Positions 380-4,048 of a stretch of DNA of 4,110 bases are shown here, one piece after another. Source of the DNA: a virus (Duplodnaviria; Heunggongvirae; Uroviricota; Caudoviricetes); the IMG/VR virus record IMGVR_UViG_2713896768_000025; one strand, 5' to 3'. Each line of letters opens with the position of its first letter. Within the stretch, counting starts at the first letter, position 1. The translations under genes and the position numbers were made by a program. The notes under the pieces are model-generated. The model had not been told where the DNA came from. It searched no databases and saw nothing but the letters and a program-made list of their open reading frames with translations.

Positions 380-404
380 GCCCGAACCTACTCGGGCTTT
401 TTTT
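380..404 (+). terminator. Rho-independent terminator, plus-strand orientation (orphan; no plus-strand gene upstream)
   Basis: GCCCGA (380-385), loop acctac, TCGGGC (392-397): a perfect 6-bp stem followed by T7 (398-404). Confidence 0.7.
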
Positions 405-722: not shown

Positions 723-799
723 TGGCGCGTTGTACTGGATTCGGACCAGTGACCGATTGCTTAGAAGGCAATTGCTCTGTCCGGCTGAGCTAACAACGC
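723..799 (-). tRNA. argO: tRNA-Arg, anticodon UCU (reads AGA/AGG)
   Basis: The reverse complement folds as a 77-nt cloverleaf: GCGTTGT TA GCTC AGCCGGACA GAGC A ATTGC CT-TCT-AA GCAAT CGGTC ACTGG TCCGAAT CCAGT ACAACGC G CCA. All stems are fully paired and CCA is encoded. The symbol comes from its position in the ileZ-argN-argO order known from Stx phage 933W. Confidence 0.93.
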
Positions 800-812
800 T
801 GAATACCAATAA

Positions 813-889
813 TGGACCGCCATCGGGGACCCGAACCCCGCGCAGCCAGCTTCGAAGGCTGGCGCTCTGTCCCGATGAGCTAATGGCGG
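813..889 (-). tRNA. argN: tRNA-Arg, anticodon UCG (reads CGA/CGG)
   Basis: The reverse complement folds as a 77-nt cloverleaf: CCGCCAT TA GCTC ATCGGGACA GAGC G CCAGC CT-TCG-AA GCTGG CTGCG CGGGG TTCGGGT CCCCG ATGGCGG T CCA. All stems are paired and CCA is encoded. The C1-G72 first pair is unusual. Confidence 0.9.
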
Positions 890-898
890 TATCTGATA

Positions 899-974
899 TG
901 GTGGCCCTTGCTGGATTTGAACCAGCGACCTGGCGATTATGAGTCGCTCGCTCTCACCACTGAGCTAAAGGGCC
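899..974 (-). tRNA. ileZ: tRNA-Ile2 type, anticodon CAU (lysidine-modified class, reads AUA)
   Basis: The reverse complement folds as a 76-nt cloverleaf: GGCCCTT TA GCTC AGTGGTGA GAGC G AGCGA CT-CAT-AA TCGCC AGGTC GCTGG TTCAAAT CCAGC AAGGGCC A CCA. The body closely resembles E. coli ileX (tRNA-Ile2) as I recall it, rather than the elongator or initiator tRNA-Met. Confidence 0.9.
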
Positions 975-1002: not shown

Positions 1003-1716
1003 TCAATAATCAAGCCCTTGCCTGGATACATATCTGTCTGGCGGGAAGCCATAATAGCGGTGAAATACAGAAATAAAGTAGGACCTGCTTGAATAACCGC
1101 ATTTTTCTGCTACAGCCTGTCCATATCCATACCGGGAACATAACATATTTACAGCAACACGCATCCGCTCTTCCAGCAACAAGCGACTGAACATGCCCCC
1201 TTCATTTTTCAGTTTTGTCTTTAACAAACTCTCACTCATATGCAACTGTAGAGCAATCGCACCAAGCGTCCAGCTTGCTGATATATCTGTCTGAATTATC
1301 GCCCTGACTTTGACACTTATGCTGGATAAACATCCACTTAAAAACAATGACATCCGTTCATCTGTTTCAAACAGAGACAGGCAGGCCATCATAAGAAACA
1401 TATCCGTGGCCTCTCCGGAAAATCCCTGGCTGGTAATTAAAGCCGCAGCCAACGCAGGATTGTTGGGTTCCAGCAACAGGTAAAGCGGAATGTCAGTCAG
1501 ACGAGTCCTCGTCAGCTTATGCTGACTTTCCAGATATTGACTTACGACGGATTCGCTTATATCAACAATTTTAACTTTGCCATAATGCATAAGGAAAAGC
1601 TCCCTGATGCATTTGGTGGCCAGAACAACTGAGCCTGGCTTAAGTGACAACGTATCCTTTTCAAGAAAAATATTAATTGGGGAGCAAACCATGATAACTG
1701 AACAGACAACAGCCAT
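1003..1716 (-). CDS. AraC/XylS-family transcriptional regulator, AppY/YdeO/GadX-like (the class of prophage-borne regulators such as PatE and PsrA/B)
   Basis: 237-aa ORF. The C-terminal roughly 100 aa form a typical double HTH of AraC type (WTLGAIALQLHMSESLLKTKLKNEGGMFSRLLLEERMRVAVNMLCSRYGYGQAVAEKCGYSSRSYFISVFHRYYGFPPDRY). The N-terminus MAVVCSVIMVCSP...KVKIVDIS parallels that of AppY (MDYVCSVVFICQS...KLRIVDID, from memory). No clear SD precedes the ATG at 1716, so the start is less certain than the frame. Confidence 0.88.
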   Translation of the reverse strand: MAVVCSVIMVCSPINIFLEKDTLSLKPGSVVLATKCIRELFLMHYGKVKIVDISESVVSQYLESQHKLTRTRLTDIPLYLLLEPNNPALAAALITSQGFSGEATDMFLMMACLSLFETDERMSLFLSGCLSSISVKVRAIIQTDISASWTLGAIALQLHMSESLLKTKLKNEGGMFSRLLLEERMRVAVNMLCSRYGYGQAVAEKCGYSSRSYFISVFHRYYGFPPDRYVSRQGLDY

Positions 1717-1751: not shown

Positions 1752-1782
1752 ATTATAGCCCCAAAAGGTAAATTATCATCAA
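1752..1782 (-). promoter_or_regulatory. Candidate sigma70 promoter for the AraC-family gene
   Basis: On the minus strand there is a perfect TATAAT (rc of 1752-1757) and a TTGATG -35 (rc of 1777-1782). The spacer is a long 19 nt. The predicted TSS lies about 30 nt upstream of the ATG at 1716. Confidence 0.35.
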
Positions 1783-1837: not shown

Positions 1838-1863
1838 AATAAAAAGCCTTCAGGACTGAAGGC
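1838..1863 (-). terminator. Rho-independent terminator, minus-strand orientation, overlapping the stop of the 65-aa ORF
   Basis: Positions 1846-1863 (gccttcaggactgaaggc) are self-complementary, giving a 7-8 bp stem with a tight loop. On the minus strand the hairpin is followed by UUUUUAUUU (rc of 1838-1845). The TGA stop (rc of 1850-1852) lies inside the stem. Confidence 0.75.
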
Positions 1864-2047
1864 GTCTGTAACAACCGCACTGATAGTCTGCCAGACCCGC
1901 CATAACAAGCTGGGTCAGTATTAACTGGCAGCGTTCGCGTGAAAGGTAAGTATTCTGCGCAATCTCCCCGACTGTCGCCGGTTCGGTAACGCTTAATTCA
2001 TCAAACACAACTCTGGCGGTTTCTGTCATATCCTGCTGTTTCAGCAT
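1850..2047 (-). CDS. Small (65 aa) winged-helix/HTH-like protein, PapI/FaeA-like in size and pattern
   Basis: ATG at 2047 is preceded by GGAAAGGG about 10 nt upstream. The segment ATVGEIAQNTYLSRERCQLILTQLVMAGL fits the helix-turn-helix plus recognition-helix pattern of small wHTH regulators (compare PapI ..[29 protein letters not shown], from memory). The gene ends in its own terminator. Confidence 0.6.
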   Translation of the reverse strand: MLKQQDMTETARVVFDELSVTEPATVGEIAQNTYLSRERCQLILTQLVMAGLADYQCGCYRRLQS

Positions 2048-2094
2048 GTCTTTTTACCCTTTCCGGTTAACGTGACATACCAATAACTCTTGTC

Positions 2095-2121
2095 TAAAAA
2101 GCCAGCAAGATAAAAAGCCAG
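2095..2121. repeat. Perfect 11-nt direct repeat TAAAAAGCCAG x2, 16-nt period
   Basis: TAAAAAGCCAG occurs at 2095-2105 and again at 2111-2121, separated by caaga. The repeats lie 48-75 nt upstream of the 65-aa gene start, in the divergent intergenic region. Confidence 0.8.
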
Positions 2122-2144
2122 TATTCACGACCACCAGCGTGTTT

Positions 2145-2173
2145 ACTGTACTGCACAAGGTTTACAGGTACAA
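2145..2173 (-). promoter_or_regulatory. Candidate minus-strand sigma70 promoter (possible displaced late promoter pR' or promoter of the 65-aa gene)
   Basis: Minus strand: TTGTAC (rc of 2168-2173), exactly 17 nt of spacer, then TACAGT (rc of 2145-2150). The two hexamers sit inside an imperfect direct repeat on the plus strand, GTTTACTGTAC at 2141-2151 and GTTTACAGGTAC at 2160-2171. Confidence 0.3.
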
Positions 2174-2191
2174 AAAACCGCTCAGCGGCGG
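2172..2191 (-). terminator. Weak terminator-like element, minus-strand orientation
   Basis: Only a 4-bp GC stem: CCGC at 2178-2181 pairs with GCGG at 2185-2188 or 2188-2191. On the minus strand it is followed by U6 (rc of a2172-a2177). Marginal stability. Confidence 0.25.
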
Positions 2192-2229
2192 GTTTAAGTT
2201 GTGTGGCGAAGTAACCACTCTTAACACGA

Positions 2230-2269
2230 TATAATACTTTTTGCGTACGCGTTAGGATTTTTATAAACT
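2230..2269 (+). promoter_or_regulatory. Candidate sigma70 promoter(s) for the AT-rich two-gene cassette
   Basis: Option 1: TTGCGT (2241-2246), 17 nt, TAAACT (2264-2269), or TATAAA (2262-2267) with a 15-nt spacer. Option 2: a perfect TATAAT at 2230-2235 with no good -35. An 8-bp palindrome GCGTACGC (2243-2250) overlaps the -35 of option 1. The ATG at 2314 has only a weak SD (tGGAAtacac). Confidence 0.35.
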
Positions 2270-2313
2270 ATGCGTCCCCATTCTCGCTATCTTTAGTCGG
2301 TCCTGGAATACAC

Positions 2314-3159
2314 ATGAAAGTTAGAAGCATAGGATTTACAATAAATAACAATAACAAAAATATTAATACCGTTGACGTAATGAATGCTTTTATCAACGCA
2401 TCAAACAGAGAACACAGTCGCACAGACTATACTCGTAAAATTCTCATTTCGGATGTGAATGATTTCTATTATGGATTAGTTGTCACATTCAGAAACCAAA
2501 AAAAGAACTGTAAGTCGCAATTTGTTGATGGTAAATTCCAGCTTAAAATTGAAGATCTTCAAGGAAGTGACAAACTTGCTAATTTCAACTTTTTCTTAAT
2601 TAAAAAATCTAATCTTTCTGGTCTCTATATGTATCACCACGGTTCATGCAGTCTGAACACTCTCTTTTCTCATTTAGAAACAATAAGTAATGAATTTATC
2701 AGAAATCAAAATAAAGAAGAAATAAAAAAACTTGGTGATAAACCAAAACAAAAAGAAGTAACTGCAATAAATAAAAAATACAAAGAAAGACTGACTTTCA
2801 GCCTTATGACAAATAAAAACAACATTCAGAGTGTTTTATGTCAATTCAAAGAGATTAAAAGCACAAGCTTTAAATTTAATTATATAGATTTTAAAGGTGG
2901 ACCAATGACTGCGCTTGAACAATTTGTTAACACCACCACAATAGATATGAATTTTAATTCTAGCGACAGAACAAAAGTGCAACAACTATCTCAGAATCTT
3001 TCAAATATTTATAATTCTATGAGTGGAGTTGCTAAAGCACAGGTTATTGCAGTAAACCATGCAGGAATAGAAAAAACCATTGATTTTATGAACTGCCCTG
3101 TTTTTGATATGATAAAAGAAGAAATGCTGAACGGGACGAATAAAAATGCCTTTATATGA
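2314..3159 (+). CDS. 281-aa soluble protein of an AT-rich cassette; candidate distant RexA-like phage-exclusion sensor
   Basis: Long uninterrupted ORF in DNA of about 22-30% GC, where random stops would be frequent, so it is very likely real. No TM segments; Lys-rich central linker (aa 130-160). Size (281 vs 279 aa) and several motifs resemble lambda RexA as I recall it. Examples: aa 79-121 IEDLQGSDKLANFNFFLIKKSNLSGLYMYHHGSCSLNTLFSHL vs VEDIKNSLADDESLGFPSFLFVEGDTIGFARTVFGPTTSDLTDFL, and aa 158-188 ERLTFSLMTNKNNIQSVLCQFKEIKSTSFKF vs ERVQIEPLMRGTTKDDVMHMHFIGRTTVKV. CDS existence about 0.9; family call about 0.5. Confidence 0.7.
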   Translation: MKVRSIGFTINNNNKNINTVDVMNAFINASNREHSRTDYTRKILISDVNDFYYGLVVTFRNQKKNCKSQFVDGKFQLKIEDLQGSDKLANFNFFLIKKSNLSGLYMYHHGSCSLNTLFSHLETISNEFIRNQNKEEIKKLGDKPKQKEVTAINKKYKERLTFSLMTNKNNIQSVLCQFKEIKSTSFKFNYIDFKGGPMTALEQFVNTTTIDMNFNSSDRTKVQQLSQNLSNIYNSMSGVAKAQVIAVNHAGIEKTIDFMNCPVFDMIKEEMLNGTNKNAFI

Positions 3160-3694
3160 ATGGCTAATAAATAAAAGATTGAGGTATCAGTACCTTACAC
3201 TGCTTGCATTCTCGATCCTGGCATTGCTTGCACTTTACCTATTGTACAGAAACACACCTAAAGTAAGTGTTAACTTTTTTGAGTTTTATCATAAAAACTT
3301 ACGAGGCTATCTCTTCTCCGGTTTTATTTCCGTGGGCTCATTTTTATTGAGCCTGCATACCTTTGTCATAATAAATTTACGCGATAAGGTTTTTGCAACT
3401 CAGGAATATAAGGAAATTTATAGCATTGCCACTGGTATACCTATTGACAAAATCAATGATAGTGTACTTTATAAACCTTTAGACAATTTATCCTCATTTA
3501 TTAATACATCAATATTATGTTCTATCACAACAGCAATTGCACAATTCACTATTGGACTTTCAACTAATTTATATGCATGCTTATTTTGCGTATGGCTTGC
3601 AATACTAACGGTATTTCTTTTATTACATTGCCTCATCATAATCAGACAAAATATTAAAATTTTATTAAAGCAACAGAGAAAAAAAGGGGGGTAA
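3146..3694 (+). CDS. 182-aa four-TM inner-membrane protein; candidate RexB-like effector/partner
   Basis: Its ATG at 3146 lies 14 nt inside the upstream ORF (stop at 3157-3159), suggesting translational coupling. Hydrophobic segments at about aa 14-34, 55-78, 115-138 and 143-166. K/R clusters at the N-terminus, in the aa 79-114 loop and in the C-tail (RQNIKILLKQQRKKGG) indicate N-in/C-in topology. Motifs recall lambda RexB (four TM, 144 aa, from memory): YLLYR / YLLFR after TM1, and TFVIINLRDKVFATQEY / TFLIGSRTRRLAKIREY after TM2. Confidence 0.7.
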   Translation: MPLYEWLINKRLRYQYLTLLAFSILALLALYLLYRNTPKVSVNFFEFYHKNLRGYLFSGFISVGSFLLSLHTFVIINLRDKVFATQEYKEIYSIATGIPIDKINDSVLYKPLDNLSSFINTSILCSITTAIAQFTIGLSTNLYACLFCVWLAILTVFLLLHCLIIIRQNIKILLKQQRKKGG

Positions 3695-3701
3695 TTCCCC
3701 C
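3679..3701. terminator. Shared convergent terminator between the cassette and Q; strong in the minus direction, weak in the plus direction
   Basis: A7 (3679-3685), G6 (3686-3691), taatt (3692-3696), C5 (3697-3701). Minus-strand RNA reads GGGGGAAUUACCCCCC followed by U7, which is canonical, and starts 5 nt after the Q stop. Plus-strand RNA has the same stem followed only by UAAUAUUAC. The TAA stop of the 182-aa gene (3692-3694) is in the loop. Confidence 0.75.
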
Positions 3702-3706
3702 TAATA

Positions 3707-4048
3707 TTACAACATTGAAAGCACACCATCCAGAAAACCAAGAGCTGTTTGCAACTCTTTTCTTATTGTCCCATCAGAACACTTCTGCTTCTTTGCAATA
3801 GTTCTTAGTGAGATGCCGATAACAAAATGAGCAATAACCAACTCATACTCTTCGGGCTTATATTTCCGCAATCGCGCAACACAGCTGTCAATCATGATTC
3901 CTTCATCATCATCGCATTGTTGGCGTGTTTTCTTTCCATGAGGTAGTAAACCTTTAAACCCTGCAGCAACAGGCTGCCAGTCCACACCACTGTTATCTGC
4001 TGCAGCCCATGCACCCCAGCGGTCCAATACTTCATACATATCACGCAT
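3707..4048 (-). CDS. Q: Late-gene antiterminator Q (short QuuD/phage-82/21-type, Phage_antitermQ family)
   Basis: MRDMYEVLDRWGAWAAADNSGVDWQPVAAGFKGLLPHGKKTRQQCDDDEGIMIDSCVARL... closely parallels E. coli DLP12 QuuD ([34 protein letters not shown]...RPQCCDDDAMII.., from memory). The track start at 4063 is a TTG codon. I place the start at the ATG at 4048-4046 because GGAGA (rc of 4055-4059) lies 6 nt upstream, giving 113 aa. Confidence 0.9.
   Translation of the reverse strand: MRDMYEVLDRWGAWAAADNSGVDWQPVAAGFKGLLPHGKKTRQQCDDDEGIMIDSCVARLRKYKPEEYELVIAHFVIGISLRTIAKKQKCSDGTIRKELQTALGFLDGVLSML

Follow-up and report, generated by a model that had tools for sequence, protein, structure and literature searches.

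Where does the late transcript of a lambdoid prophage start when the gene for its late antiterminator, Q, is not followed by a late promoter? The question was raised by a 4,110-nucleotide stretch of a Caudoviricetes virus (IMG/VR record IMGVR_UViG_2713896768_000025; "the window" hereafter means this whole stretch), in which Q, encoded on the minus strand, is followed by a hairpin terminator and then by a two-gene cassette of the opposite strand. Our reading, to which we assign a probability of roughly 80%, is that the window holds the late region of a lambdoid prophage in which Q and a Q-responsive promoter (pR') lie ~1.45 kb apart, the space between them being a slot for mostly anti-phage genes of the opposite strand. 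The coordinates of the features are collected in Table 1.

A late promoter with a defined start was located by homology on the Q strand, between Q and the lysis genes. Positions 2232-2167 (minus strand) match phage 933W at 81% across its annotated pR' -10, qut site and first terminator, and the window's CTAACG, GCGTACGC and TATCGT align with TTTACG...TATCAT of 933W, the homology to the 933W/Sp5 leader covering 2255-2172. The sequence common to the window and 933W reads AAGAGTGGTTAC.T.GCCAC...AACCCGCCG..GCGG-T6/7-GTACC, and the conserved block occurs only once in the window. Its predicted start is A2219 and its -35 (2255) lies 1,451 bp from the Q stop (3707); pR' of the window thus neither overlaps Q nor lies directly downstream of it. 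The first leader terminator (2195-2172), which ends ~48 nt past the predicted start, is the homologue of the 933W terminator at 20726-20748, and a second hairpin (2138-2110) resembles the stem and tail of the 933W/Sp5 tR', its fold being weak (-7.4 kcal/mol, z -0.9).

In the 933W record, pR' overlaps the end of Q and is followed by the putative qut, by a terminator ~45 nt on and by a second one ~250 nt on. Differential RNA sequencing (dRNA-seq) in Sakai placed the Sp5 pR' start adjoining Q and tR' 258 nt downstream, a placement that is approximate, with coordinates that differ from those of the record, and that fits a start within AAGAG; pR' of 933W/Sp5 is regarded as constitutive, with termination of its transcripts in lysogens, and the short pR' transcripts of Sp5 act as small RNAs (sRNAs; StxS) (PMC7547250). 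Besides the homologous -10 position, start region and first leader hairpin with its T-run, the window shares with 933W/Sp5 the downstream tRNA set and the Q family: Q of the window matched PF06530 (E 2.5e-45, 113 of 118 profile positions), is 45% identical to Q933W and is distantly related to Q21 of structures 6p18/6jnx (E 3e-4). The two differ in that the -35 of 933W overlaps the last Q codons, whereas 1.45 kb of antisense cargo intervenes in the window; in the length of Q, which in the window has 113 amino acids, ends in ...DGVLSML and has no GVRLEMD... tail like that of cassette-less relatives, compared with 157 amino acids as annotated in 933W; in the palindrome between the hexamers (GCGTACGC in the window and ACGATCGT in 933W); and in the length of the leader up to the second terminator (~110 nt, versus 258 nt in 933W/Sp5).

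The same core is found at a distance from Q in Escherichia coli K-12, where a start has been mapped to it. In the DLP12 prophage, quuD is followed by the antisense gene nmpC and then by the core AAGAGTGGTTAC, which begins at NC_000913.3 577226, 2887 bp past the quuD stop and ~170 bp before essD. With an offset of 777 between U00096.2 and U00096.3, which we take to reflect an IS1 and 1-bp differences, position 577229 corresponds to 576452 of the older version. At this very position, U00096.2 576452, a plus-strand transcription start site (TSS) is listed by Cappable-seq (PMC4782308, supplementary file 1). Under this offset the TSS is the bracketed A of AAG[A]GTGG, 7 nt past the -10 TATGCT, the window counterpart being 2219; a second TSS, converted in the same way, also falls 7 nt past a -10-like hexamer (TATTAT), supporting the conversion. 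The DLP12 qsr' region thus resembles the window in having Q, an antisense accessory gene, the same pR' core and the lysis genes in this order, and differs in that it carries an IS5-disrupted porin gene as cargo and not a defence-type cassette, and in that QuuD belongs to the 933W-like clade and goes with the palindrome ACGTACGT. Hybrid phages of the lambda-qsr' kind are viable, and this would point to tolerance of the distance from Q. A search of the literature on antitermination at quuD, essD and nmpC returned nothing relevant. Separately, a strong plus-strand Cappable-seq TSS (score 90) is seen beside the nmpC start, at ~4359 of the DLP12 locus as extracted here (L171; NC_000913.3 ~576858), ~370 nt upstream of the pR' core and directed toward it.

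The original prediction had named another site, TTGTAC-17-TACAGT at 2173-2145, as the first plausible minus-strand promoter, embedded in direct repeats and driving the Q-dependent late transcript. Both hexamers are present at 17-bp spacing, the four closest relatives all share TACAGT, and several terminators lie downstream. The T-run of the conserved hairpin terminator 2195-2172, the counterpart of the annotated 933W terminator, has TTGTAC as its 3' end, however, and because the supposed -35 is the tail of a terminator we do not regard this site as a promoter. Moreover, the hexamer reads TTATGG in 1720a-02 and Stx2a_1447, which otherwise keep the region, the sequence past the hairpin varies between downstream module types, the mapped K-12 start lies upstream of the site, at the core, and the site scores 7/12 and was not listed by the promoter scan, pR' being ~70 bp nearer to Q. 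As for the direct repeats, a single 11-nt pair was found (2095-2105 and 2111-2121), downstream of the site. A late start at 2173-2145 is therefore very unlikely in our view; the core at 2255-2203 and the terminators at 2195-2172 and 2138-2110 had been overlooked.

Another possibility is that pR' overlaps the 3' end of Q in the window as well, as does the -35 in 933W, where a terminator also follows within ~50 nt. The first element past the Q stop is indeed the canonical minus-strand terminator that had been predicted, a hairpin, AGGGGGAATTACCCCCCT, followed by TTTTTTT (3702-3679), which begins 5 nt past the stop; it would then be tR', and Q-modified RNA polymerase would read antisense through the whole cassette before arriving at the late genes. 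We consider this extremely improbable, given that the promoter scan gave no promoter-like minus-strand site in 3700-3800, that the hairpin lies inside the exchangeable cassette and is lacking from three quarters of related junctions, and that the homologue of the 933W leader, start region included, stands at 2255-2172, away from Q, the conserved block being a single copy. The hairpin falls within the swapped segment 2266-3719, as defined by the breakpoints with Stx2a_1447, and a Q-strand terminator was found in only 25 of 100 distinct Q junctions; judged by these alignments, it belongs to the exchangeable cassette and is no general feature of the slot, and a terminator right after Q was rejected as a design rule. 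Read on the plus strand, this hairpin serves to close cassette gene 2, with a poor U tract (UAAUAUU). Most likely, it insulates the cassette from transcription leaving Q and also closes the cassette mRNA.

Is the separation of Q from pR' peculiar to this prophage? We assembled 160 loci with relatives of the window's Q, taken from viral contigs and, for genomes, at one per species, and located both Q and the core in 144 of them; a core profile run with nhmmer gave one same-strand core, on the Q strand, in nearly every locus. The gap between Q and the core measured 471-3784 bp (median 1,665) in 131 of the 144, from many Enterobacterales, with a GC content of 0.35 compared with 0.44 for Q; Q was short in these loci (113-129 amino acids, median 115), and 221 of the 231 open reading frames (ORFs) in the gaps ran antisense to it (96%). 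A gap of 100 bp or less was seen in 11 loci, ten of which have a Q of 129-144 amino acids; the Q stop lies -4 to 49 bp from the core anchor in these long-Q relatives, and 85 bp from it in the remaining one (L154), whose Q is short (112 amino acids). In the sampled loci, the separation of Q and pR' is hence a standing architecture, the normal state of this Q clade. The notion of a cassette inserted at the Q/pR' junction, as first proposed, is correct as to the place, the cargo lying exactly there, but not as to a singular event that might harm Q loading, for the 131 loci and DLP12 are all alike in this respect.

The boundaries of the slot emerged from alignment with relatives, as had been suggested. 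In 1720a-02, which carries no cargo, the Q sequence runs on as ...MLGVRLEMDDWLLKK, and 12 nt separate its stop from the counterpart of window position 2251. In Stx2a_1447 a different pair of antisense genes occupies the slot, and the homology of this phage to the window breaks off at 2265 and 3720. On one side the cargo module replaces the last Q codons, and at its other end stands the A-tract upstream of the pR' -35; because the last residues of the short Q proteins vary with cargo type, we place the left joint inside the end of Q. These comparisons bear out the proposal that pR' and qut are displaced from Q by opposite-strand cargo lying between the 3' end of Q and the promoter. Of 5,426 complete E. 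coli genomes, 911 have the same pR' type.

In 113 distinct cores that bear cargo, AAAA..CTAACGCGTACGCAAAAA, the -10 TAnnnT and AAGAGTGG are near-invariant (the -35 and an 18-nt block among them), and 98 of 118 distinct cores have a leader hairpin whose T-run ends at +42 to +66, the stems varying while their complementarity is kept. The palindrome between -35 and -10 changes with the type of Q: GCGTACGC accompanies Q proteins at least 61% identical to that of the window, GCGGTCCGC those that are 50-57% identical to it, and ACGTACGT or ACGATCGT those that are 933W-like. From this co-variation, the palindrome is a candidate Q-binding element; alternatively, it may consist of two opposed -35 hexamers. 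The core block is also the cargo boundary in every locus, is partly palindromic and adjoins a positioned cargo-strand -10, and the short pR' transcripts of Sp5 are sRNAs, all of which could mean that it serves mainly as a recombination joint, or as a promoter for an sRNA (StxS-like) and for the cargo, with late-gene transcription coming from another site or from early-operon read-through. We think this unlikely: the homologous promoter of 933W/Sp5 is the late promoter driving stx, the core always lies between Q and the lysis genes and is always directed at the latter, its palindrome changes with the Q clade, and each of the other roles is compatible with its being pR'. Three Serratia loci (L136 5451-5850, L137 5451-6252 and L140 5451-5725) have tandem partial copies of the core right after Q and no cargo genes, with up to seven core-profile matches in L137.

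The ORFs in the gaps fall into ~72 protein clusters and ~53 architectures. Matches to known or candidate defence proteins were obtained with PADLOC for 24 of the 52 cluster representatives tested, among them KwaA (E 1.9e-83), KwaB (9.9e-144), BstA (5.2e-116), PD-Lambda-5_A (1.5e-164) and PD-Lambda-5_B (3.5e-115), as well as NsnA, NsnB, methyltransferases and several PDC candidates. The slot thus has the marks of a defence hotspot, conserved flanks around variable content and known defence systems within that content. Anti-phage hotspots are known in P2-like phages and P4-like satellites (PMC9122126; bioRxiv 10.1101/2022.05.12.491691), and like them the Q slot combines conserved phage flanks with highly variable, low-GC cargo in which known defence systems stand beside many unknown genes. 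In contrast to them, it occurs in another type of phage and lies inside the regulatory junction of an antiterminator gene and its target promoter, its cargo is nearly always antisense, and its right flank is a promoter and not a gene. A literature search, limited in extent and no proof of novelty, found no description of this slot or of a hotspot at the Q junction of lambdoid phages. Nucleoid-associated proteins of the NA37/YejK type, without a PADLOC match, were also seen as cargo, in three clusters and ~20 loci (such as L057 6541-7575, L111 6621-7796 and L068 6380-7498), in most cases together with a partner protein whose function is unknown.

The cassette of the window consists of two plus-strand ORFs overlapping by 14 nt (together ~1.4 kb, 2314-3694), with a GC content of 0.31 compared with 0.44 for Q. 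Pairs of this kind, a RexA-fold protein with a membrane protein, are the commonest cargo (15 of 144 loci in this sample selected by Q similarity), and the cassette itself occurs in 219 of 5,426 complete E. coli genomes; gene 1 has homologues in Enterobacterales only, none of them named. It had been called RexAB-like, a label that holds for fold and gene architecture and fails for sequence family and genomic position. Structural alignments gave gene 1 the RexA/RdgC fold (8-11% identity), and directly downstream of it gene 2 encodes a small polytopic membrane protein with 3-4 hydrophobic helices (segments 14-37, 56-78 and 134-174 by hydropathy). As with RexA-RexB of lambda, then, a small multi-pass membrane protein follows directly, and the pair is prophage-encoded and read against the lytic direction. 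The pair differs in having no sequence similarity to them detectable with Pfam at E<0.01, gene 2 has 182 amino acids to the 144 of RexB, and, while the Rex genes lie beside cI on the pRM transcript, the cassette is neither located in an immunity region nor co-transcribed with a repressor, sitting between Q and pR'. An exclusion function like that of Rex is a candidate role of the pair. Nor is the cassette a Kiwa system, the KwaA and KwaB profiles of PADLOC being silent on both proteins at E<1, while true Kiwa fills the same slot in other loci. When the gene 1 family was compared by hhalign with 28 other cargo clusters for a RexA-like superfamily, the best probability was 3%, a weak negative in view of the shallow alignments.

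The window is 100% identical to lambdoid prophages of several E. coli strains, among them JB2 and DEC9B, except for a single 81-bp gap. This is an in-frame deletion in gene 1, which has 281 amino acids in the window and 308 in other copies, and the extra 81 bp are retained in all the best-matching copies listed among 218 near-identical E. coli copies. Gene 1 has thereby lost 27 residues, including D271, A274, G279 and N284, which do not vary among homologues, and the window's copy of the cassette is therefore probably non-functional. Truncated or split forms of gene 1 (271, 258, or pieces of 148 and 111 amino acids) were also observed in L012, L013, L017 and L004 (4424-5349), and such frequent inactivation would fit a costly or toxic function.

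Several points weigh against our reading of the locus as a whole. By consensus pR' is weak (7/12) and was not listed by the promoter scan, and the start at 2219 is assigned to this prophage by homology. The K-12 start is itself weak (relative read score 1.7), and its conversion between genome versions leans on presumed differences between U00096.2 and U00096.3. Among the relatives, structures are available for Q21 alone, and it binds direct repeats and no palindrome (Q21 structure preprint). The candidate defence role of the window's cassette is met by silence in the databases, since neither protein gave a Pfam match at E<0.01, the RexA and RexB families included, or any PADLOC match at E<1. 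Lastly, the loci were chosen by similarity to a short Q, so that the proportions given above are not population frequencies, and the cargo ORFs were called crudely.

The cargo may have a promoter of its own built into the conserved flank. On the cargo strand, TAnnnT is found at one fixed offset (window 2264-2269, TAAACT) in 30 of 53 architectures, as against 0-7 at neighbouring non-core offsets, the sole comparable count, 28, being at an offset inside the conserved -35. In the window a spacer of 17 bp separates TAAACT from TTGCGT (2241-2246), which is complementary to the invariant ACGCAA, so that the -35 would be inside the invariant block. This suggests back-to-back, overlapping promoters in the conserved block, though the same A/T-rich bases may instead be read as an UP element. 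That the gap between Q and pR' is an undescribed docking site for defence genes with its own divergent promoter (TTGCGT-17-TAnnnT), back-to-back with pR', is a tentative proposal that we hold to be less likely than not. Were it true, Q binding could switch the late genes on and the prophage defence off in one step, the palindrome recognised by Q lying under the cargo -35, and the slot would offer a rich and readily tapped supply of new defence systems; some half of the protein families in it match nothing known. A plus-strand TATAAT at 2230-2235 was also considered as the cargo promoter and dropped, having no usable -35 and not being conserved in other cassettes.

Taken together, the locus could work as follows. 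In the lysogen, the cassette would be transcribed away from pR', possibly from the divergent promoter at 2241-2269, and its transcript would end at the 3702-3679 hairpin, which would also block antisense transcripts from Q into the cassette; pR' would fire weakly from ~2219, terminating at 2195-2172 or 2138-2110. Upon induction, Q would be made and find pR' in trans, probably recognising the inter-hexamer palindrome that changes with the Q clade, and would take RNA polymerase past the leader, 1863, tRNA and sRNA terminators into the esterase and lysis genes. This arrangement corrects the position of the late promoter in a common class of E. coli and Shiga toxin-producing E. coli (STEC) prophages, and it implies that acting on a distant promoter is routine for Q. 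Some Stx2a phages carry another cassette in the slot, and it therefore bears on the modelling of Stx and lysis timing. It also defines a compact and recognisable slot (Q 3' end ... CTAACGCGTACGCAAAAA) across Enterobacterales, which holds Kiwa, BstA, PD-Lambda-5 and dozens of uncharacterised gene sets.

Table 1. Features of the window, from Q toward the late genes (positions in the 4,110-nucleotide stretch).
Feature	Position	Strand	Description	Family
Q	3707-4048	-	short form, 113 aa, late antiterminator of the Q21/Q933W family	PF06530
Exchangeable cargo module	2266-3719	.	promoter-proximal leader, two genes and hairpin; GC 0.31	
Post-Q hairpin with T7 run	3679-3702	-	strong intrinsic terminator for transcripts leaving Q	
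Cassette gene 2	3146-3694	+	182-aa polytopic membrane protein, RexB-like position	
Cassette gene 1	2314-3159	+	protein of RexA/RdgC fold, 281 aa	
81-bp deletion scar in gene 1	3096-3105	+	between two CCCTGTTTTT repeats	
Candidate divergent cargo promoter	2241-2269	+	TTGCGT-17-TAAACT, inferred	
Late promoter pR'	2226-2255	-	-35 CTAACG 2255-2250; palindrome GCGTACGC 2250-2243; -10 TATCGT 2231-2226	
Late transcript start, conserved	2203-2222	-	AAGAGTGGTTACTTCGCCAC, small GTGG...CCAC stem; putative qut region of the 933W annotation	
Leader terminator 1	2172-2195	-	hairpin AAACCCGCCGCTGAGCGG, then T6	
Leader terminator-like hairpin 2	2110-2138	-	GCTGGTGG...ACTGGC, then TTTTTAT	
Late transcript ORF 1	1850-2047	-	65 aa, weak TrmB-like winged helix; followed by hairpin terminator 1863-1838	
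AraC-family regulator gene	1003-1716	-	sigma-70-like site 1779-1752 just upstream	
tRNA cluster CAT, Arg-TCG, Arg-TCT	723-974	-	ileZ-argN-argO set of Stx-type phages	

On the minus strand, the gene order runs from a DUF968 gene, beyond the window, through Q, the cassette slot, the 65-amino-acid ORF, the AraC-family gene, three tRNAs and two Rfam sRNAs to the start of a SASA/NanS-type esterase gene; in the full record, holin and lysozyme genes lie downstream of the esterase. A scan of the window gave 19 terminator-like sites, compared with 3.7 expected from shuffles. Beyond the leader it recovered, at 1863-1838, 436-411 and 321-293, the three minus-strand terminators named in the original prediction (1863-1838, 435-411 and 319-293), so that five predicted intrinsic terminators, counting 2195-2172 and 2138-2110, stand between pR' and the late genes. 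The layout thus supports the earlier picture of a late transcript that crosses several terminators, the winged-helix and AraC-like genes and the tRNAs on its way to the esterase and lysis genes.

Two sRNA families of Rfam were matched in the window, STnc100 at 405-613 on the minus strand (175.6 bits, full length) and AgvB, an anti-GcvB sRNA, at 345-404 on the plus strand (56.2 bits, just at the family threshold). Their 3' ends coincide with terminators at 436-411 (minus strand, STnc100) and 380-397 (plus strand, AgvB), and the terminator earlier named 435-411 is thus the end of an sRNA gene, since STnc100 has its 3' end there. The best sigma-70-like site of the window, ATGATA-16-TATAAT (10/12; 1752-1779, minus strand), stands just upstream of the AraC-family gene, which may have its own expression in the lysogen, apart from the late transcript. 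The tRNA with a CAT anticodon (899-974, minus strand) was called Met by ARAGORN, whereas its homologue is annotated as tRNA-Ile (ileZ, AUA-reading) in RefSeq and in the 933W record.

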